A DNA stretch of 64,000 bases from an uncultured Candidatus Saccharibacteria bacterium (lineage in GTDB: Bacteria > Patescibacteriota > Minisyncoccia > Phycocordibacterales > DATDWN01): the NCBI GenBank assembly GCA_964469605.1, contig CAYXZA010000001.1, forward strand, positions 71,274 through 135,273, given 5' to 3'. Position 1 is the first letter of the stretch. Every line of letters begins with the position of its first letter. The notes under the pieces are model-generated. The model was not told the DNA's origin and made no database searches. It worked only from the letters and a program-made list of their open reading frames with translations. The position numbers were made by a program, and so were the translations under genes. Positions 2,688 through 57,137 of the stretch are shown piece after piece.

Positions 2688-3152
2688 ATGAGCACAAAAA
2701 AAGAACTAGTTTGGACAGCACCTTTGTATATGTTTATACCGAAAACAACAGATTGGTATTGGATAGTTGGAATCATATCAGCAACAATCGCAATAGTCTC
2801 AACAATGCTAGGAAACATCACCTTCTCTATACTTATAATAATAGGTGTAATTGTTACCTTTTTAAATGCACATAAAGAACCTAAAACTGTAACCATAACA
2901 ATAAACTCCAAAGGAATAAAAATAGATGACAAGATATATTTTTTTGATGAACTAGAATCATTTTGGGTTGAAAATAACAATCTCTACCCTAGAATCATCT
3001 TTAAACAAAATAGAATAATATTCCCTTTTATGAAAGTTCTAATACACTCAGAGGATGCTGATGAAGCAAGAGAGTTTTTACGAGAATATTTACCAGAAGA
3101 GTATATGAATGAAAATATAATTGAAAAAATATTTATATATTTTGGTTTTTAA
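2688..3152 (+). CDS. hypothetical membrane protein
   Basis: 154-aa ORF with two or three hydrophobic helices near the N-terminus. Confidence 0.4.
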   Translation: MSTKKELVWTAPLYMFIPKTTDWYWIVGIISATIAIVSTMLGNITFSILIIIGVIVTFLNAHKEPKTVTITINSKGIKIDDKIYFFDELESFWVENNNLYPRIIFKQNRIIFPFMKVLIHSEDADEAREFLREYLPEEYMNENIIEKIFIYFGF

Positions 3153-3178
3153 GTATAAATATGCTAGTTTGTAAATAT

Positions 3179-3253
3179 GTCCTCGTAGTTTAATGGATAG
3201 AACACGAGTTTGCGGAACTCGTGATTGAGGTTCGATTCCTCACGAGGGCACCA
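3179..3253 (+). tRNA. tRNA-Arg, anticodon GCG by my reading of the loop, with encoded CCA
   Basis: Cloverleaf folds: acceptor GTCCTCG/CGAGGGC, D-stem GTTT/GAAC, anticodon stem CGAGT/ACTCG with loop TTGCGGA, T-arm TGAGG-TTCGATT-CCTCA, discriminator A, then CCA. Confidence 0.7.
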
Positions 3254-3307
3254 AGAATTTTACTAATCTGTTTTTTGTCTATATTAAAAACTACAACACT
3301 GAAAAAA

Positions 3308-4327
3308 CTATTTAGATGAGATATATTTTTTATTTAGATTGTATGCCATATATCCAATACCAATAATCAGGAACCCTACAATAATAAGTGCAATTGGCCA
3401 CCCAATTGAATCAACAAAATATTTTGATGTAATTTTTACCATATGAGCCATTAAGAACAAAGCACCAAAAGTTAGCATTGACTGACTTTTTAAATACACA
3501 CTTCCGTAAAAAGCAGCAAAAATGAAAGCAATGAAAATAAGATCAAAAAATCCTCCAATAAATATACCAGAACCCAAAACAATCAATGTTCCTAATCCAA
3601 ACAGTGCATTCCTTACTGCTTTCTTCTCTTTTTCATCAGAAGCATCAATGGCTACTGATACTAATTGATAACCACGAGCAATTAATATGTAAGAAAAACC
3701 TAAAAGCATTGCTGCCCATTTAATTATATTTGAACTATAATAATCAAGAGTAAAAACTTTTATCACCAACAAATAGTAAGCCCACGAAGCAAAACCTATC
3801 GTAATTAAAACAAGGATATTCTTTTTACTTACTAAAAGTGCATAACCAAAAATAACAGATAACACTAGTGCTGTGTAAAATGTATAAGGCCATGTAAATG
3901 ATATATTTGCCTCACTTATAATAACATCCACACTTAACGGAGCAAGTACACATGAAATAGTAAACATTACTTGAGAAATTACTCTCTGATGAGGTTTGTT
4001 GAGGAAAAAAGCACCGATGAAAGTTATCAAAGAAATTCCTAAAGTAACTAAGACACGACCCATAAATCCAATTTCAATCCAGTTTTGAACAACAAGTATT
4101 GCAACACCACCAAGTATAATAATTGCACCAATACCATAAAATGTATTAATAATATTTTTTGATGATTCTTCTTTATGCGAAATATCTACTGTGTTTGAAT
4201 TAAAAACCGGAGATGTATTGACCGATGGTGTAACTACATTATTAGCCAACGACAGCAAATCTTCTTTTGAAATCTTACCTGTGGCTATTTGCCCCTCTAT
4301 AAAATTAACAATTTGTTGTTTATCCAT
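3308..4327 (-). CDS. polytopic membrane protein, hypothetical
   Basis: 339-aa ORF with a soluble N-terminal ~60 aa followed by at least eight hydrophobic segments. Confidence 0.5.
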   Translation of the reverse strand: MDKQQIVNFIEGQIATGKISKEDLLSLANNVVTPSVNTSPVFNSNTVDISHKEESSKNIINTFYGIGAIIILGGVAILVVQNWIEIGFMGRVLVTLGISLITFIGAFFLNKPHQRVISQVMFTISCVLAPLSVDVIISEANISFTWPYTFYTALVLSVIFGYALLVSKKNILVLITIGFASWAYYLLVIKVFTLDYYSSNIIKWAAMLLGFSYILIARGYQLVSVAIDASDEKEKKAVRNALFGLGTLIVLGSGIFIGGFFDLIFIAFIFAAFYGSVYLKSQSMLTFGALFLMAHMVKITSKYFVDSIGWPIALIIVGFLIIGIGYMAYNLNKKYISSK

Positions 4328-41801: not shown

Positions 41802-42203
41802 TTAAACTACAATAATTTCATCGTGGTCTTCTGCTCCTTGAATTTCTCCCTCTTTAAATACACCATGCCAATTTTCATCAATAGGTAATTTATTTGGTAA
41901 GAATTCAAGAAATTTATCATATGTAAATATGGTTGTTCCATTAGTAGATTCAATACCTCTAACTAATATATGTGTAATTTTTCCGTTTTCATTTATTGCG
42001 AATTTATCAATTGTTATTTTATTATTTTCATCATATTCAAGTACCCCATGTTCATTTCTTTTGGTTGGTATAGCATCGCCAACTTTTAAATTTATTACAG
42101 ATCCATTTTTACTTGTAATTTGAATGGATAAACCTCTACTTTCTTCGTTATTTAACCAATGTGTTTCTGTTTCTATTTTTTCCATAATAATTAAATTATA
42201 CAC
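41802..42203 (-). CDS. hypothetical protein
   Basis: 133-aa ORF. Confidence 0.45.
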   Translation of the reverse strand: MYNLIIMEKIETETHWLNNEESRGLSIQITSKNGSVINLKVGDAIPTKRNEHGVLEYDENNKITIDKFAINENGKITHILVRGIESTNGTTIFTYDKFLEFLPNKLPIDENWHGVFKEGEIQGAEDHDEIIVV

Positions 42204-42211
42204 CTACTATT

Positions 42212-44167
42212 TTAAAAGTCTATTTTAAAATAACTACCAGTGTTGAAAGATATTAAATTTTTCTTTTCATATTCTTTCAAATCCTCATCTATCTCCTCTA
42301 TAAACCTAGATGGACTGTTTATTTTTTTCTCTCCAAATATCACCCTGGTTTGACTATGACAAAGGTAAAGCTTTTTCTTTGCTCTGGTTATGGCAACATA
42401 ACAGAGTCTCCTTTCCTCTTCCTCATCTTTTTTATCCTTTTGTTTTCCAAATCTTTGGTGAGGAAAAAGATCTTCTTCAAGTCCTGATATGAAAACCGTA
42501 TCAAATTCCAAACCTTTACTTCCGTGAACTGTCATAAGTTTAACCCCTTCTTTTTCTTTTTTCATCTCATCTTCATCTGTCAGCAAGGAAACTTCTGTTA
42601 AAAACAATTCCATACCATCTTCACCAAAAGTAGAGTCATAATATGTTCCAAGAGAAACAAGCTCCATTATATTCTCTAACCTCTCAAAATCCTCCTCTTT
42701 TTTGCTCTCTTGAAGTTCTTTTTTTAATCCAGATATCTCTATTGTGTATCTTATGGAGTCTGAAACTTTATTTGTTTTAATAAAATCAGCTATTTTTTCA
42801 AGTATTTTTCTAAAATTCTCTATTTTTTCTTGTGTTTTAAATGGTAGTAAATTTTCTTCTCCGCTTTTTATTTTTAAAATACTAGTCTTGCCTATTCCTC
42901 TTGCGGGAACATTTACAACTCTTATAAAATCACCAAAATTATCTTTATTTAAAGATGCTTTGATATAGGAAATACAATCTTTAACCTCTTTTCTTTCAAA
43001 AAATTTTGTCCCAATCATTTGATAAGAAACTGCATAGGCTAAAAATGCCTCTTCAAGTATTCGCGATTGAAAATTTGCTCTGTATAAAACAGCAATTTCA
43101 CTAGGTTTTTTGCCAGCTTCTATGAGTTCTTTTGACTTTTGAGCAATAAAATGAGCTTCATCGGCTTCTGTAAAACCCTCAAATATGCTTATTTTCTCAC
43201 CTTCATTGTTTAATGTGAAAAGATTTTTATCTATTCTCTGGTTATTTTTTTGTATGATTTGGTTTGATGCAGATATGATGTTTTTTGTTGATCTGTAATT
43301 TTGTTCAAGTAGTATGACTTTGCATTTTTCGTATTTTTTTTCAAAAAGAAGCATATTTTTAATATCAGCACCTCTCCAAGAATAAATATTTTGATCACTA
43401 TCCCCTACAACACAAATATTTTTATATTTTTCTGCTATAAGTGAGACTATTTTATCTTGAACTTTGTTTGTATCTTGATATTCATCTACACTTATATACC
43501 TAAATCTTTCTTGATATTTATCTAAAACATCCCTGTTTTTTTCTAGCAGTTTAAGTGTTATCAAAAGTAAATCGTCAAAATCCAAAGACCCTTCTTTTTT
43601 CTTTGTTTTTTCATATATATCCCAAACTTTTTTAGTTAAATCTATTGAAAAATCATTAAAACTCTTGTTTGAAAACTCTTCTAGATCAACTCCAAGGCTT
43701 TTTTCAGAGCTTATTATTGCTGAAACTTTATCTAGGTGTTCTTTTGGGTCATAAGAGAGCTCTTCAAGTGCCTTTTTTATAATTTTTTTTGAGTCAGATT
43801 TGTCTAATATACTAAAATGTCTGGGTATTTTTAAAATATCAGCATTTTCTTTAAGTATCAAAACTCCCAATGAGTGAAATGTTTTAATTGTTGGAAATGT
43901 CTTTTGTGACTTTAAAAAAAGTTCCTTGTTTTCTAAAAGCATACTCTCTATTCTATTTTTCATTTCTTTACCAGCTTTGTTTGTAAAAGTTATAGCTAGT
44001 ATTTCAGATGGAGAAACTCCATTTTCAATAATCTTCATTATTCTGTGGGTTATGGTTTTTGTTTTCCCAGCTCCGGCTCCGGCAACTAAAAGCAGTGGTC
44101 CCTCTGTGCAAAGGACAGCTTCTTTTTGTTTTTCATTCAATCCTTCTAAAAATTTACTATTCATCAC
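42212..44167 (-). CDS. pcrA: ATP-dependent DNA helicase, UvrD/PcrA/Rep family
   Basis: Motif I 'LLLVAGAGAGKTKTITHRI', 'ILAITFTNKA', 'VDEYQDTN', 'VGDSDQNIYSWRGA'; 651 aa. Confidence 0.85.
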   Translation of the reverse strand: MMNSKFLEGLNEKQKEAVLCTEGPLLLVAGAGAGKTKTITHRIMKIIENGVSPSEILAITFTNKAGKEMKNRIESMLLENKELFLKSQKTFPTIKTFHSLGVLILKENADILKIPRHFSILDKSDSKKIIKKALEELSYDPKEHLDKVSAIISSEKSLGVDLEEFSNKSFNDFSIDLTKKVWDIYEKTKKKEGSLDFDDLLLITLKLLEKNRDVLDKYQERFRYISVDEYQDTNKVQDKIVSLIAEKYKNICVVGDSDQNIYSWRGADIKNMLLFEKKYEKCKVILLEQNYRSTKNIISASNQIIQKNNQRIDKNLFTLNNEGEKISIFEGFTEADEAHFIAQKSKELIEAGKKPSEIAVLYRANFQSRILEEAFLAYAVSYQMIGTKFFERKEVKDCISYIKASLNKDNFGDFIRVVNVPARGIGKTSILKIKSGEENLLPFKTQEKIENFRKILEKIADFIKTNKVSDSIRYTIEISGLKKELQESKKEEDFERLENIMELVSLGTYYDSTFGEDGMELFLTEVSLLTDEDEMKKEKEGVKLMTVHGSKGLEFDTVFISGLEEDLFPHQRFGKQKDKKDEEEERRLCYVAITRAKKKLYLCHSQTRVIFGEKKINSPSRFIEEIDEDLKEYEKKNLISFNTGSYFKIDF

Positions 44168-44380
44168 AGTATTTTAACATAGTATTTTTATTTTTAATTA
44201 TAATTATAAATAATAATAAAAATGTTTGGTTAAAAATACTCTATAAATAATTGACATGTTGTCATGTATTATTGTATAATATGTGTGTTATTAGTAGCCA
44301 GTGGCAAAAGCCTTAAATTTCCAAGCTGGTATCTATAACAAGCCCTTTGCTACGGCATTGGGTTCTCTACGGAGAAAAAA

Positions 44381-44989
44381 ATGACACTTTTTGTGATAGT
44401 CACGGCGGTGATCTGCTCGTGGTATTACTTCTCAGTTGTGGTGCCTCGGCGTAAGGAACGAGAGAGGTTCGACAAGGCTCTCGGGGCTTACAATACCGAG
44501 CGGGATCGGGTTGAGGCTCTGCCAAGACTCGACACTCGTTGGCTGATGCGTGTACCGGGGGAAATAATGGACAAGAATTCGATTTGCCGCTCCTACGGGA
44601 CGCGATATGATCGGATTTTCATCGTCGATGAATGCGGTAACGGGTGGGTTGGATTGGTCACCCCGGAAATTCTCAAAGACTTAACAGCTGGAGAGTATAT
44701 CCGTTGTAACTACTTCATTCCCTTTCGGGGTGATGGTGAATCCAGTGCTGGAAAACCAGTGACTGTCGACAACCAGATAATCTATGTTTATCCTATCTGG
44801 ATGAATGAGGGAGTCAACACCCTAGACTGGAGTCTGTGGGCACGAATCGAGAAAAACTTTTACAAGCATTTGCAGCAATGGAACTATCAGTCTGGTCTCG
44901 GCGAGCTCAACGGGCATATGCAGGAGTTTTGCGAGAAGCGGGATCATTTCAACAGACTCGCTGCTGTGGTGGGGATTGAGGTGAAGTAA
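44381..44989 (+). CDS. foreign-composition (GC-rich) membrane-anchored protein of unknown function
   Basis: ~52% GC against the ~30% background. N-terminal TM 'LFVIVTAVICSWYYFSVVV'. GC-rich codons (CGC, CTC, GGG). Confidence 0.55.
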   Translation: MTLFVIVTAVICSWYYFSVVVPRRKERERFDKALGAYNTERDRVEALPRLDTRWLMRVPGEIMDKNSICRSYGTRYDRIFIVDECGNGWVGLVTPEILKDLTAGEYIRCNYFIPFRGDGESSAGKPVTVDNQIIYVYPIWMNEGVNTLDWSLWARIEKNFYKHLQQWNYQSGLGELNGHMQEFCEKRDHFNRLAAVVGIEVK

Positions 44990-45507
44990 TGAAAATTATC
45001 TCAATTCTCACTGCTCTGTTTCTTGTTGGTTGTGGTGGTAAGCAAAAAAAAGCTGAAAGCCACAAAGACACACCGATCAAAACAACAATCCCAGCACAGG
45101 TGGTCCATGAGGTGAAGAAGGTGGGGCCTGGATTCTGGAAAGAGTTCGGGGTCTCTAGTTCTGTGTATCGCCCTGATGTTGAACATGGAAGTGTATATGG
45201 TGTAGATGGATCGTTACTTGCCTTCAAGACCATTGATGGTGTGGTCTGGTTCGGAAACTTCGAGCCACGAGACAACAAACCTCCGCTCGAAACCCGCAAG
45301 GTGTACCTTGTGTGCATAAGTGGCAACCCTGCAAAAGGTTGTGGTTACGCAATGCGCAACTTGGCCGTCGCTCCGCCACAATGTGTGCTGGAGGAAAGAG
45401 TCGTGGGTTGGAAGGAAGCCCGAGGCTTCCTGGAGCCCAGGACTCCAAATTCAGAACTCTTTTGGCTGAATATCGAGGACTTTCTTCGATCTAGAGAATG
45501 GAAGTAG
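44989..45507 (+). CDS. foreign-composition lipoprotein of unknown function
   Basis: Lipobox 'ALFLVGCGG'. The ATG overlaps the TAA of the upstream ORF. Same GC-rich composition. Confidence 0.55.
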   Translation: MKIISILTALFLVGCGGKQKKAESHKDTPIKTTIPAQVVHEVKKVGPGFWKEFGVSSSVYRPDVEHGSVYGVDGSLLAFKTIDGVVWFGNFEPRDNKPPLETRKVYLVCISGNPAKGCGYAMRNLAVAPPQCVLEERVVGWKEARGFLEPRTPNSELFWLNIEDFLRSREWK

Positions 45508-45541
45508 AGTGTAAGTAAAAGTCTCGCTACTATGCGAGCAT

Positions 45542-45571
45542 AGCCCGCTCTTCGGAGCGGGCTGTTTTTTT
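45542..45571 (+). terminator. GC-rich intrinsic terminator ending the foreign cassette
   Basis: AGCCCGCTC-ttcg-GAGCGGGCT followed by T8. Confidence 0.65.
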
Positions 45572-45740
45572 AAATAAAGACTTTCAGTTTAATTTTGTAT
45601 TTTACAGTTTGCTGTTGACAATCTCATTTGGTTTTGGTAATATATAGAAGTCAGATTGTTTAGTTTCGCCCGAAAGGCGAATAATTTTTTACCAAAATTC
45701 AAGTAAATTTTAAAAATATTTAACAGTTAAATTATATATT

Positions 45741-53082: not shown

Positions 53083-53937
53083 TTACGTCGCTGATTGTTC
53101 TTGAACCGATTGTTTTGCGAGCCAACGTGAGAGATACCATGCTCCGCAGAGCGCGATTCCTACGCCGACCCACTGAACGGGCGTGAGATGTTCGCCAAGC
53201 ATGACACTTGCGCCAAGGATGACCGCAGGGGTTTCTCCTTGGGCAAGGACACTCGCTTCCGTCGTGGGCAAATTCTCGAACGCCATCAGATTCGCAATCC
53301 AATAGAGGAATCCTCCGACGAATGCGAATCCGAGAACGAGCATAATCAGTTTCGGTTCGGCGATGGCTGACCACGACGCACCAGCACTCATCACGAGGCC
53401 GAGCGTTCCCATGCCGATGCAGGCATAGAAACACTTTTGGAGCGAGTTCCCCTTCGCGCGAGCAAAAAATTCGTAGATGATTCCGTTCATGATGGTTCCG
53501 AACAGCGTCCATCCGAATCCTGCCCACTGAAAATGTCCGCCCCAACGAGCCATCACTACACCGCCGAGCATCAACACCAGTCCAATGATGGACGCTGGAG
53601 AAATTCGCCGGCCTAAGAAAGCGCCGATCACGAGGTTCACCAGCGGGGTCGCGGTAATGATGATGATTGTCGGTCCCACGCCCCAGTGCCGAATTCCCTC
53701 GAAAAGTCCGAGTGTGGCGAACGGCATGGTCAGTGCAATAAGATACGTATACTTGTCCACACGTCCGACGACTCCACGAAGTCCGATGAGTGCCATTCCG
53801 GCAGTTAGGAATCCGCGAAAGACCATCAGTTGCGTGGGCGTGAACACACTTAGAACGTTGACGAAAGGCAGGGCCAACCCTGCCGTTAGCCAAATGCCCA
53901 TGACCCCGAAGAGTCCCAGCATGGTTTTACGATGCAT
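53083..53937 (-). CDS. EamA/DMT-superfamily transporter, foreign GC-rich composition
   Basis: Ten hydrophobic helices in two 5-TM halves. ~58% GC. The alternative 303-aa Arg-rich frame (52982..53893) was rejected. Confidence 0.65.
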   Translation of the reverse strand: MHRKTMLGLFGVMGIWLTAGLALPFVNVLSVFTPTQLMVFRGFLTAGMALIGLRGVVGRVDKYTYLIALTMPFATLGLFEGIRHWGVGPTIIIITATPLVNLVIGAFLGRRISPASIIGLVLMLGGVVMARWGGHFQWAGFGWTLFGTIMNGIIYEFFARAKGNSLQKCFYACIGMGTLGLVMSAGASWSAIAEPKLIMLVLGFAFVGGFLYWIANLMAFENLPTTEASVLAQGETPAVILGASVMLGEHLTPVQWVGVGIALCGAWYLSRWLAKQSVQEQSAT

Positions 53938-54121
53938 ACAAAATCCTTTCTGATTGGAAAAATCGTTTTTTCCTAAATATATTATATCATTTTATAATAT
54001 ATTGTCAATGATTATAATCAAAATATTGCTATTTTATAACTATAAATATGATTAAAATTTATTTATATAAATTTTGTTGATATATATTGACAAAAAATTA
54101 ACTATAAAATACAATATATTT

Positions 54122-54895
54122 ATGAATAATGAAAATTTTGATCTATCAAAATCACTAGAGTTAATAGGTTTTAGTCAAAAAGAAGTTTTGGTGTATTTGT
54201 CTTTACTTTCTTTAGGAAAAGGAACTGTTTCTCAAATAGCAAGAAAAGCCGGTATAAATAGGCCTAGTGGTTATCATATTTTAACTTCTCTAGAGTTAAA
54301 AGGGGTTATAAATGCTTCTGGTAAAGAGCCGAAAAAGGAATATGTTGCCAATTCTCCAGACGAAATAGAAAAACTCTTATTGAAAAAAAGAGATGATTAT
54401 GAAAATTATATAAAAGAAGCTAGAAAAATTATTCCCGAACTAAAGTCTATGCACAATATAAACAACAGGCCAAAGATATCTTTTTATGAAGGTAAAGATG
54501 GTTTACAGAAAGTCTATGAGGATACTTTAACTTCAAAAGAGGATATTTTGGCTTATGCTAGTGTTGAAGACGTTCACAGTACCCTACCAAATTATTTTCC
54601 TCTTTATTACAAAAGAAGGGCTAGAAAAAATATAAATATCAGAGCTATATTTCCAGGTTCCGAAGATGCAAAAAAATTAAAAAAATTTGATCAAGAGGAA
54701 AAAAGACAATCAGTACTTGTTCCTATTGATAAATTTAGTTTTCATCCGGAAATAAATATTTATGATAACAAGGTTATGATAGCTTCTTGGAGGGAAAAAC
54801 TCGGAATTATTATTGAAAGTTCTGAAATAGCAGATGCAATGAAAAAAGTTTTTGAGTTGGCTTGGCTAGGTGCAAAAGGGATTGAGGAGAAATAA
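54122..54895 (+). CDS. TrmB-like HTH transcriptional regulator (paralog 1)
   Basis: N-terminal winged helix 'LIGFSQKEVLVYLSLLSLGKGTVSQIARKAGINRPSGYHILTSLELKGVI'. Start set at the internal Met. Confidence 0.5.
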   Translation: MNNENFDLSKSLELIGFSQKEVLVYLSLLSLGKGTVSQIARKAGINRPSGYHILTSLELKGVINASGKEPKKEYVANSPDEIEKLLLKKRDDYENYIKEARKIIPELKSMHNINNRPKISFYEGKDGLQKVYEDTLTSKEDILAYASVEDVHSTLPNYFPLYYKRRARKNINIRAIFPGSEDAKKLKKFDQEEKRQSVLVPIDKFSFHPEINIYDNKVMIASWREKLGIIIESSEIADAMKKVFELAWLGAKGIEEK

Positions 54896-55087: not shown

Positions 55088-55723
55088 TTACACCCGAAGA
55101 TGAGCAAGTGACCGAGCAATGTTTGCTCTGGCTTGCGTTTCATACTTGTTGCGGAAGGATTGCGTCGAGTAGATATTCGGTCGATCTAGAAACGCCTTCA
55201 GGATCGCCAAACGTCCGGCAATAAACTGATCTTCCGGTACCCACTCATACTCCTTACGTACTTGCTTCTCATATTCATCGAATCTTTCCTCAGGTTGACC
55301 TAGAATTGAGAGATCGATGTCAACAATAAGTTGAACATCTGAATCGGTGGGAGTCGCTGAATGCTTCGTTGCTATGATGAGATTTGCCACCGATTGTCCG
55401 AGGTTGTCGGGCAACGAAGCATTTCGCACCATTTCCATGGCGAGTGCTGCACTTCGCTCCTCACTGTCCTTGGTTTTGGTATCGTAGATTGCGTCATGAT
55501 ACCAGAGAGCCAATTCAACAGTATCAGGATTTGTTGCGAGGTGTCGGCCACGCTCGAGTTCGTCGAGGCAGAGTCTGATGTGTTGGAGTGTGTGGTACAC
55601 TCGGTGCGGTTCAGAGTATCGCACAACAAGCTCGTTGTAGACCACGCTTGCGTCTCCTTGCGCACCGAGGTGTTGCCACAACGCTTGCCATTGTTGTTCA
55701 TTTCGATTTAGCATTGTAAGCAT
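55088..55723 (-). CDS. HD-domain metal-dependent phosphohydrolase (small ~200-aa family), GC-rich
   Basis: 'YHTLQHIRLCL...WYHDAIYD' His/Asp metal ligands. ~50% GC. Confidence 0.6.
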   Translation of the reverse strand: MLTMLNRNEQQWQALWQHLGAQGDASVVYNELVVRYSEPHRVYHTLQHIRLCLDELERGRHLATNPDTVELALWYHDAIYDTKTKDSEERSAALAMEMVRNASLPDNLGQSVANLIIATKHSATPTDSDVQLIVDIDLSILGQPEERFDEYEKQVRKEYEWVPEDQFIAGRLAILKAFLDRPNIYSTQSFRNKYETQARANIARSLAHLRV

Positions 55724-56204
55724 CCTTCAGTTTCTCAAACACTGGTTCGGGGAGATAATTCTTCACTATTGTCGCCCATCCTTCAGGACCTATCAACCTC
55801 TTCACCATGCTTGAACTGACTTCGGCAATTCCACGTGGTGGCATCAGAAAAACTGTTGTGATGCCAGAGTTTAAGTCGCCGTTGATATTTCTCATCACCC
55901 GCTCGTATTCGTAGTCACTTTCGGTTCTGATGCCACGAAGTATGAATTGTGCACCTACCGATTGAGCGTAGGTGATAAGAAAATGATTGGTGAAACTACT
56001 GACTTCGACATTCGGAAACTGTTTTGTTGATTGTCGAAGCATTTCAAGTCGCTCATCAACCGAGAACATACAGTGCTTCTCTGGATTAATACCAATTGTT
56101 ACGAAAAGTTTGTCGAACAAAGCCGACCCTTGCTTGATCATCCAAATATGACCGACAGTTGGTGGATCAAATGTTCCAGCATAAACCGATGTCTTCTTAG
56201 TCAT
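55698..56204 (-). CDS. coaD: phosphopantetheine adenylyltransferase
   Basis: 'SVYAGTFDPPTVGHIWMI' (T/HxGH nucleotidyltransferase) and 'ILRGIRTESDYEYE'. Start trimmed to the Met before the motif. GC-rich. Confidence 0.8.
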   Translation of the reverse strand: MTKKTSVYAGTFDPPTVGHIWMIKQGSALFDKLFVTIGINPEKHCMFSVDERLEMLRQSTKQFPNVEVSSFTNHFLITYAQSVGAQFILRGIRTESDYEYERVMRNINGDLNSGITTVFLMPPRGIAEVSSSMVKRLIGPEGWATIVKNYLPEPVFEKLKDAYNAKSK

Positions 56205-56375
56205 CACCCTTTCTTTTTTTGGAAAATCACCCTTTGAATCAAACATTTCTTCAGACAACGATTCGTTAAGTTCAGAGAATAAATTCATACTTCCTCCTAG
56301 TTAAAGAACTTTCTCCCTATATTATGTATTTGTTGACAGAAATGTTCAATTATGTATAATAGAAACTATACAACT

Positions 56376-57137
56376 ATGAATAAAGAGAATTTGCCTGACA
56401 TATTAAAAGATATTGGACTTCCACCAGCTGAGGCCTCGGTTTATATTGCTTTATTAGATGGACTAAAATCTGTCCAAGAAATAATAAAAACTACTGGAGA
56501 AAAAAGACCAACGGTATATTACTCACTTAACTCCTTAGAAAAAAGAGGTTTAGTTAGCAAGACTGGAAAAGAATACGGAAACAAATTTCAAGTTGAACCG
56601 ATAAATAAATTATCAGAATTAGTAGAAAGAAATATACGAAGACAAAATTCTCTTTTAGAAAAGACAAAGAAACTAAAGGATTACTATCCAAACAAAAGAA
56701 CCAACAAAAAAATTTTAGTGTCTTACTTTGATAGTCTTGAGTCGATTAAATCAGCTATATTTTATAGTCTTTATAGTAAAGATAAAAAAATCAGAACCAT
56801 TGTGCCTGGAAGTAATTTTTTTCATCAGATTGGCGAGAAATTTGTTGAAGAGTATGTAAGTCAGAAAATTGAAAAAGGTATAAAAACTCAGGCTTTATGG
56901 GAAGATGTTCCTAATAAAAAAACTATAGATAAATATTATAGTGATTCAGTAATAAGACAATTGCCTTTGGACATGCATAATTCCTTTGAAACCACAATCT
57001 TCATATTTGACGACAAAACACTTTATATCGCTCCTAAAAAAGAGCATTATGCTGTGTTAATTCAATCTCATGAACATTCTAAAATGATGAGATCATTATT
57101 TGACGTAATTTGGAAAAATTCAATTCAAGTCGATTAA
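56376..57137 (+). CDS. TrmB-like HTH transcriptional regulator (paralog 2)
   Basis: 'LKDIGLPPAEASVYIALLDGLKSVQEIIKTTGEKRPTVYYSLNSLEKRGLV' is parallel to paralog 1. Confidence 0.5.
   Translation: MNKENLPDILKDIGLPPAEASVYIALLDGLKSVQEIIKTTGEKRPTVYYSLNSLEKRGLVSKTGKEYGNKFQVEPINKLSELVERNIRRQNSLLEKTKKLKDYYPNKRTNKKILVSYFDSLESIKSAIFYSLYSKDKKIRTIVPGSNFFHQIGEKFVEEYVSQKIEKGIKTQALWEDVPNKKTIDKYYSDSVIRQLPLDMHNSFETTIFIFDDKTLYIAPKKEHYAVLIQSHEHSKMMRSLFDVIWKNSIQVD

Follow-up and report, generated by a model that had tools for sequence, protein, structure and literature searches.

Phage morons, as reportedly described by Hendrix and Juhala in 2000, are autonomous promoter-gene-terminator units of atypical base composition. 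Patescibacteria have very few described regulatory RNAs. A survey of 125 Patescibacteria genomes traced 83% of the inferred gene transfers into this group to donors within it (PMC12455944). Here we describe a GC-rich segment of 1.3 kb located between the genes of a UvrD/PcrA-type helicase (pcrA, minus strand) and NusA (nusA, plus strand) in a 64,000-nt stretch of contig CAYXZA010000001.1 from an uncultured Candidatus Saccharibacteria bacterium, hereafter called the window. The segment comprises a promoter, a previously undescribed folded leader RNA of about 90 nt, a gene for a membrane-anchored protein (open reading frame 1, ORF1), an overlapping lipoprotein gene (ORF2) and a terminator. It is probably an autonomous accessory transcription unit belonging to a Patescibacteria-specific cassette family made up of promoter, leader, ORF1-type gene and terminator, here with ORF2 as well. 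The leader travels with ORF1 homologs into many chromosomal sites.

Measured in 300-nt intervals, the GC content rises from 0.27–0.31 to 0.46–0.52 across positions ~44290–45570 and then falls back to 0.29; overall, positions 44290–45570 have a GC content of about 50%, versus about 30% in the flanks. The third-codon-position GC content (GC3) is 0.58 in ORF1 and 0.49 in ORF2, and 0.17–0.21 in the neighboring genes. A sigma-70-type promoter, TTGACA-18-TATAAT (44251–44280, plus strand), matches the consensus at all 12 of 12 positions, and the predicted transcription start at ~44287–44290 coincides with the point where GC begins to climb. The transcript would begin with the leader (44290–44380, plus strand), which was delineated by conservation, covariation and single-sequence folds. 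It is followed on the same strand by ORF1 (44381–44989), coding for 202 aa with an N-terminal hydrophobic, predicted transmembrane (TM) helix, and by ORF2 (44989–45507), coding for a 172-aa lipoprotein that starts with MKIISILTALFLVGC; the ATG of ORF2 overlaps the TAA of ORF1 as TAATG. The 3′ end (45523–45572, plus strand) consists of a small hairpin, CTCGC-TACTAT-GCGAG, and an intrinsic terminator, AGCCCGCTC-TTCG-GAGCGGGCT (45540–45572), with an 11-bp GC-rich stem, a TTCG loop and a T-run. The GC-rich stretch is bracketed exactly by promoter and terminator and is one transcription unit. Both ORFs are real coding genes, as differences between homologs are concentrated at third codon positions, and they are not paralogs, being unrelated to each other. 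Neither direct nor inverted repeats bracketing the unit were found in a search for them, and no tRNA gene lies close to it. An earlier, sequence-only reading of this DNA had noted the sharply GC-rich two-gene segment between divergent pcrA and nusA, the N-terminal TM helix of ORF1, the lipobox LVGC of ORF2, the ATG/TAA overlap and the GC-rich terminator, all of which are confirmed; the 12/12 promoter, the leader and two further GC-rich islands in the window were absent from it.

The leader is composed of a P1/P2 domain (44292–44335), a linker CUAUAACAA, a P3 hairpin with a UACG loop (44342–44363) and a P4 hairpin (44364–44375), all on the plus strand. The P1 helix has two parts and a conserved 2 × 2 internal loop, and it encloses the short P2 hairpin (GGC-AAAA-GCC) together with an invariant single strand, UUAAAUUUCA. 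P3 has about 9 bp and is capped by C(UACG)G. In P4, UCUC-UACG-GAGA, the core CUC-UACG-GAG carries the Shine-Dalgarno sequence GGAG (44371–44374), 6–10 nt ahead of the AUG. The position is consistent across loci: the leader occupies the 5′ untranslated region (UTR) of one gene family, ends 6–10 nt before the start codon and has the GGAG within P4.

Eleven distinct leaders were available for analysis. Their pairwise identity is 67–95% (mean 79%) over 11 loci whose ORF1 proteins are only 26–57% identical, and the leader is conserved while the synonymous sites of the downstream genes are saturated. The leader is constrained far more tightly than the coding sequence. In the MAFFT alignment 90.6% of the cells are paired, versus 31–44% when the partners are slid; in the model-fitted alignment the values are 92.3% and 32–47%, respectively. 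Compensatory changes were found in 11 pairs, including 8 of the 9 pairs of P3, with the support coming from P1 and P3, and none of 500 shuffles reached any of the observed pairing measures. Single-sequence minimum free energy folds recover the helix architecture in 9–10 of the 11 leaders; the window leader has a folding energy of −29.5 kcal/mol (z = −2.6 relative to shuffles). A covariance model scores 78–103 bits and detects a single copy at each locus, in every case immediately ahead of an ORF1 homolog; on a shortened leader in a sibling genome (L006) it gives 53 bits. Apart from one distant subfamily described below, the leader precedes all ORF1 homologs whose DNA could be read, even those of 39% (L019), 42% (L020) and 26% (L021) identity. 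A perfect TTGACA/TATAAT pair is located ahead of it in nine other loci; L020 is the exception, with the leader present and no obvious promoter seen. Rfam 15 gave no match at the gathering threshold over the whole window, and at E-values up to 10 the region 44230–44420 yielded only noise of 12–13 bits (snoRNA and miRNA models). The leader was searched for in the other GC-rich islands of the window and is absent from them.

In several database entries of the family (P0007, P0016, P0018 and P0022) the start codon has been called inside the leader, and the same is seen at L019 1213–1242 and L020 4001–4045; such entries carry 9–25 spurious N-terminal residues, for example ...VAITTPYYGLGSLRRK. This bears on annotation of the family.

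A word-indexed search of 5.8 billion proteins with ORF1 recovered eight homologs of 45–64% identity, none of them annotated; those with a named source came from metagenome-assembled genomes (MAGs) of Paceibacterota or Patescibacteria. With a profile built from the close homologs, HMMER was run over all 1.84 billion representatives, which extended the family to about 82 unannotated clusters of ~180–260 aa with the same single-domain layout. In ORF1 itself the N-terminal TM helix is followed by a basic stalk helix and a conserved domain of ~150 aa. In 83 of 86 members the lysine and arginine residues cluster on the C-terminal side of the TM helix and not on the N-terminal side (mean 4.6 versus 0.57). 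By the positive-inside rule this bias predicts an N-out/C-in orientation with the conserved domain in the cytoplasm, and ORF1 can be modeled as a membrane-tethered protein with a cytoplasmic domain. Searches of both ORF1 and ORF2 against Pfam, NCBIfam, PADLOC and PHROGs gave nothing useful, and a PDB sequence search with a 64-member ORF1 profile produced only spurious matches to the TM segment. The statement of the sequence-only reading that neither protein can be named holds, as no convincing match was obtained in Pfam, NCBIfam, PADLOC or PDB.

The ORF1 homologs are found in differing chromosomal contexts. Single homologs are located between khpA and trmD, downstream of rpsP (L001); between msrA and an NDH-2 gene, ndh (L003); beside an rve-type gene and rpiB (L020); between the S6-SSB-S18 operon and ychF (L021–L023); and in three more unrelated neighborhoods (L008, L010 and L011). 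A decayed copy lies between rplE and rpsN (L014), with the leader intact and the ORF cut to 37 codons. L001 and L003 are homologous from promoter to terminator and share nothing beyond. Without ORF2, ORF1 homologs occur alone in at least nine genomes (L001, L003, L008, L010, L011, L013, L019, L020 and L021), and every homolog with a readable context resides on a Patescibacteria-type contig. A strict scan for the leader pattern in one genome per species (185,579 species) returned four matches, three in records titled as Patescibacteria-lineage MAGs and one in an uncultured Candidatus Saccharibacteria MAG. The collections IMG/VR, INPHARED and BFVD yielded no relatives, and the pattern of the leader 5′ part had no match in viral contigs. 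The pattern of the 3′ part matched 20 viral contigs, all rejected by the covariance model (best score 18 bits). A search for a donor lineage of the cassette identified none. The patchiness of the ORF1 family and the different context in each genome fit horizontal movement between genomes, and most likely the cassette spreads among Patescibacteria rather than arriving from hosts or phages.

Several further observations concern individual copies. In the Parcubacteria MAG with the decayed cassette (L014, 746–1400) the leader scores 99 bits, an unrelated 92-aa ORF comes after the truncated one, and a short inverted fragment resembling the YP-W region of the family is also present. In L020 a gene of the HTH_38/rve type (integrase/transposase-like; 2935–3888) is located immediately upstream of the cassette copy and divergent from it; this is the only mobility-type gene seen beside any copy and may be coincidental. 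Members of a leaderless distant subfamily (L024 3604–4401 and L025 1787–2584) lie ~125 nt from a tRNA-Ser gene, and their neighborhood of PilM, tRNA_bind, RuvX and DUF5652 genes is conserved in two genomes; across all loci linkage to tRNA genes is inconsistent. On the P0092 contig an overlapping gene for 187 aa follows the ORF1-type gene, and the presence of a second gene may not be peculiar to the window. Inspection by eye shows a common hairpin motif (GAGAGUCC..ACUCUC-like) in the 3′ UTRs of several cassettes and, just past the terminator, a common TTTCAATTTGT motif that may be the right-hand boundary of what is transferred (L001 6649–6800, L003 6649–6800, L008 1821–1930 and L011 6643–6700).

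The age of the segment is indicated by the sibling genome L006, in which PcrA and NusA are 91% and 92% identical to those of the window, with a synonymous divergence (dS) of ~1.0. Between pcrA and nusA, L006 has the same promoter and terminator as the window, and between these lie the initial 57 nt of the leader and, directly after them, an ortholog of ORF2; both 3′ hairpins are kept. BLASTN aligns window positions 42179–44346 with L006 1548–3717 and window positions 44974–45569 with L006 3718–4304; in L006 the alignment is exactly contiguous across window 44346/44974, so that a segment of 627 nt (44347–44973, plus strand) comprising the 3′ half of the leader and nearly all of ORF1 is absent. 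Since the full leader accompanies ORF1 everywhere else, this difference is explained by a deletion in L006 and not by an insertion in the window. An assembly chimera, which the sequence-only reading had named as a possible source of error, is rejected, because the same left and right junctions are reproduced in the independent L006 assembly. Because a sibling at dS ~1.0–1.3 shares both the island and its site, the island predates the split and is not recent. The deletion indicates that ORF1 is dispensable. Purifying selection still acts on ORF2 in L006; ORF2 therefore works without ORF1, and the two genes can be separated. Like a horizontally acquired island, then, the segment has a composition atypical of its genome (GC 0.50 versus 0.30), a patchy distribution and differing chromosomal contexts, whereas the absence from the same site in close relatives that marks a recent arrival was not seen, as L006 has the island there and no empty site was recovered. 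Of the horizontal acquisition proposed earlier, the foreign composition, the patchy family and the varied contexts stand; its recency does not.

ORF2 is a lineage-specific, separable protein and, judged by its sequence, a surface lipoprotein. Its signal peptide and lipobox LVGC (Cys15), within MKIISILTALFLVGC, fit the pattern [LVI][ASTVI][GAS]C expected for a lipoprotein and are kept in P0011; they are followed by a disordered linker of ~30 residues and a C-terminal domain of ~85 aa. The protein is 64% identical to its only ortholog, in L006 (dS 1.34, dN/dS 0.17), and no further relatives were found in any database searched or by tblastn of the other loci. The top PDB match of both copies and of their profile is the Anabaena nuclease NucA (1ZM8/2O3B), with E-values of 0.023, 0.0044 and 0.028. 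The alignment spans ORF2 residues ~86–168, opposite the beta-beta-alpha-metal core, and its ~83 aligned residues include both the GY-DRGH strand and the helix that binds metal in the NucA/Serratia nuclease type (Pfam PF01223). The motifs W-GN-E--DN, GxGY, P-TP-N and W---ED--R are common to both proteins, and the AlphaFold2 (AF2) model of ORF2, itself of low confidence (predicted local distance difference test, pLDDT, 45), has secondary structure elements in the same order. The P-TP-N...W..(I/L)ED..R segment aligns and might supply the metal-ligand Asn and conserved Glu of the alpha-helix, but the register near the Asn is ambiguous and the AF2 model is unusable. ORF2 differs from NucA in being a 172-aa lipoprotein with a ~30-aa disordered linker, in E-values of only 0.004–0.03 and in lacking the catalytic histidine: the position of the general base (His124 of NucA, in DRGH) is taken by Asn in the window ORF2 and by Asp in the L006 copy. 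The Arg of DRGH is lost as well. Pfam PF01223 did not match ORF2, and no Pfam family matched even at E-values up to 10. These alignments provide a lead, somewhat less likely than not to be right, that ORF2 is a degenerate nuclease-like surface lipoprotein. Lipoproteins of this type may be degenerate relatives of surface nucleases in organisms dependent on scavenged nucleic acids.

The base composition of the family presents a puzzle of its own. The GC content of the gene and of its host is 0.50 and 0.31 in the window, 0.55 and 0.33 in L001, 0.51 and 0.38 in L003, 0.48 and 0.34 in L010, 0.49 and 0.43 in L008, 0.49 and 0.44 in L011, 0.51 and 0.47 in L019, 0.55 and 0.47 in L020, 0.47 and 0.34 in L024, and 0.43 and 0.41–0.43 in L021. 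Gene GC (0.43–0.55) is thus independent of host GC (0.30–0.47), almost never lower than it, and above it in 9 of 10 loci. The homologs of the relatives are themselves GC-rich, the opposite of the widespread homologs of ~30% GC that would have spoken against acquisition. At the fourfold degenerate sites of ORF2 with a conserved residue, the window and L006 are 52% identical, compared with 55–63% for native genes, and the GC content at such sites (GC4) is 0.48 in the window and 0.38 in L006, compared with 0.09–0.18 in native genes. In a one-parameter decay model, neutral amelioration from an ancestral ORF2 GC4 of ~0.67 fits equally well, so that active GC maintenance in ORF2 is not proven and we make no such claim. 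Counter to simple decay, P0092 and P0099, which are 47% identical, share a neighborhood and at least P0099 is still GC-rich. The GC richness may reflect a mid- or high-GC pool, as yet unsampled, out of which the gene has been transferred repeatedly; codon selection and biased gene conversion are the other possible causes. The cassette lends itself well to the question of why certain genes remain GC-rich in genomes of 30% GC.

Two other GC-rich islands are present in the window. One (53083–53937, minus strand; GC 0.55, GC3 0.61) encodes an EamA-family transporter, has intergenic borders of ~0.2 GC and adjoins a TrmB-family regulator gene (54074–54895) of native composition. The other (55088–56288, minus strand; GC 0.41–0.54) consists of two overlapping genes, for a 211-aa protein without a Pfam match and a 196-aa cytidylyltransferase-like protein, and also adjoins a TrmB-family regulator gene (56352–57137). 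With three such islets within 64 kb, this genome seems to harbor GC-richer accessory genes repeatedly.

The sequence-only reading had taken the segment for a two-component membrane module recently acquired from a high-GC donor, either a host or a phage, with a role in toxin/immunity, surface exclusion or host interaction. The sharp GC contrast, the GC-ending codons, the overlap of start and stop codons and the patchy distribution agree with this, as do the two other islands if they reflect uptake of GC-richer genes, but recency is contradicted by the sibling at dS ~1, and the donor by the homologs themselves, none of which, among the contexts read, is off Patescibacteria-type contigs or appears in the phage and viral collections. 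The two ORFs are unrelated, and a toxin-antitoxin or toxin-immunity system would need obligate pairing in one compartment; instead ORF1 stands alone in at least nine genomes, ORF2 stands alone in L006 and is nevertheless constrained, and the ORF1 domain is predicted to be cytoplasmic (83/86 members) and ORF2 extracytoplasmic, on the opposite face of the membrane. We consider this interpretation as a whole unlikely. In a phage-type two-component spanin pair (i-spanin and o-spanin), too, the gene for a TM protein is followed by a lipoprotein gene that overlaps it, and ORF2 has a weak PHROG match to "Rz-like spanin" (E-value 0.017). This match is limited to residues 1–39, i.e., the signal peptide and lipobox. 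The predicted N-out/C-in orientation of ORF1 is the reverse of the N-in/C-out of an i-spanin; no holin, endolysin or other phage gene lies nearby, the neighbors being pcrA and nusA, and elsewhere ORF1 occurs without any lipoprotein gene. Spanins disrupt the outer membrane, and Patescibacteria are generally regarded as lacking one. Topology and context effectively refute a spanin pair.

An old, vertically inherited Patescibacteria gene, intrinsically GC-rich through codon or mRNA selection or GC-biased gene conversion and lost from most lineages, is possible but in our view doubtful. On this view the GC island would be no mark of transfer. It would account for a gene GC that does not follow the host, for the GC richness of the leaderless subfamily as well (0.47 versus 0.34), for the synteny of the window with L006 and of P0092 with P0099 in the PilM, RuvX and DUF5652 neighborhood, and for the failure of homolog searches to find a GC-rich source pool. 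What it does not explain are close copies in unrelated contexts, including the interior of the rpsP-khpA-trmD and rplE-rpsN operons, the homology between L001 and L003 that stops at promoter and terminator, and the occurrence of the leader pattern in only 4 of 185,579 species genomes. In addition, the saturation of synonymous sites between copies gives no sign of a conserved mRNA structure in the coding part, and the decay of ORF2 from a fourfold GC of ~0.67 fits without selection. As to the leader, the conserved region might not be a regulatory RNA at all: it could act at the DNA level, as an operator or a site of recombination, or be translated as an upstream ORF. In the window a GTG-initiated frame of 27 codons does run through it, with its TGA overlapping the ATG of ORF1, and gene callers have translated the leader in the four database entries given above; the GTG, however, has no preceding Shine-Dalgarno sequence, the leaders differ by 1–2-nt indels that break any common frame, and P1 and P3 show compensatory changes. 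The start of the conserved stretch just after the −10 box places it in the transcript. These readings of the leader are very improbable.

We return to the proposed autonomous transcription unit of Patescibacteria. Transcription of the cassette would be strong and constitutive, and expression of ORF1 would be set at translation initiation, since the Shine-Dalgarno GGAG is held in the C(UACG)G hairpin P4. A trans-acting factor, either a small ligand or a protein, possibly the basic cytoplasmic domain of ORF1 itself, may recognize the invariant unpaired nucleotides of P1/P2 and the two identical tetraloops, thereby shifting the equilibrium of P4. ORF2 would be translated by coupling to ORF1 through TAATG and would thus be under the same control in this genome. 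A bolder and doubtful possibility is that the leader represents a sensor RNA of a new class, dedicated to a Patescibacteria-specific membrane-tethered family and acting as a riboswitch or as the RNA partner in an autoregulatory RNA-protein pair; with promoter, gene and terminator it would make up a new type of self-contained, portable cassette that passes from one Patescibacteria chromosome to another and keeps ~50% GC irrespective of the host. The patchy spread, single-gene autonomy and membrane anchoring prompt the guess, of low confidence and rather unlikely to be right, that the cassette is an accessory or conflict-type gene, for example for phage exclusion or defense.

Several points weigh against the main interpretation. 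The syntenic pairs window/L006 and P0092/P0099 (47% identity) show that vertical inheritance occurs too. Neither a mobility mechanism nor a ligand or binding protein was found, and the unit has no terminal repeats, target duplications, integrase or consistent tRNA linkage. Only 11 distinct leaders were to hand, and P2 and P4 never vary among them, so that covariation says nothing on either, though both fit the structure. With only 3–4 bp, P4 may merely damp translation or stabilize the mRNA. Promoter, transcription start and Shine-Dalgarno masking are predictions from sequence. The distant subfamily (L024/L025; P0099, 23% identical) lacks the leader, and PADLOC gave no match that would back the guess of defense or exclusion.

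The intergenic regions flanking the cassette contain further features. The region 45615–45690 includes a promoter-like site ahead of nusA, TTGACA-17-TAATAT (10/12), and the nusA leader has a hairpin, TTCGCC-CGAAA-GGCGAA, followed by a T-run; it looks like an attenuator or terminator and is kept in L006 with a G-U change. Between the start of pcrA and the cassette promoter there is a 32-nt AT-rich inverted repeat (44172–44235) with abutting arms of 81% complementarity, which may be the promoter or operator region of pcrA.

Compared with described systems, the cassette resembles phage morons in having its own sigma-70 promoter, its own terminator and a deviant composition, in its location between unrelated genes, and in carrying one or two accessory genes, which in morons, too, are often for membrane proteins. 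It differs from them in residing in Patescibacteria chromosomes, in a housekeeping neighborhood where no phage genes that would mark a prophage are nearby, and in its conserved structured leader, which is not typical of morons. With the genomic islets of Patescibacteria (PMC12455944) it shares atypical composition, patchiness and, as the evidence suggests, exchange mainly among Patescibacteria; its size of only 1.3 kb and the lack of an integrase, tRNA target and repeats set it apart, as does the GC richness of the ORF1 family in every sampled host, which a one-off transfer leaves unexplained. The leader shares several features with translational riboswitches and other cis-regulatory leaders in which the Shine-Dalgarno sequence is masked: a location in the 5′ UTR, a covarying structure, invariant unpaired nucleotides and association with one gene family. 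Its nearest architectural analogue is guanidine-II (mini-ykkC), with tandem hairpins, identical tetraloops and the second hairpin at the ribosome-binding site. Unlike guanidine-II, it has C(UACG)G loops of the UNCG type instead of ACGR and an extra P1/P2 domain, has no Rfam match at E-values up to 10 and precedes a gene unrelated to guanidine biology. Against the very small number of regulatory RNAs described in Patescibacteria, it is a compact and well-conserved element with covariation that is associated with one protein family alone. Overall, the cassette adds to known kinds of element: islets of accessory genes, orphan cis-regulatory leaders and uncharacterized protein families.

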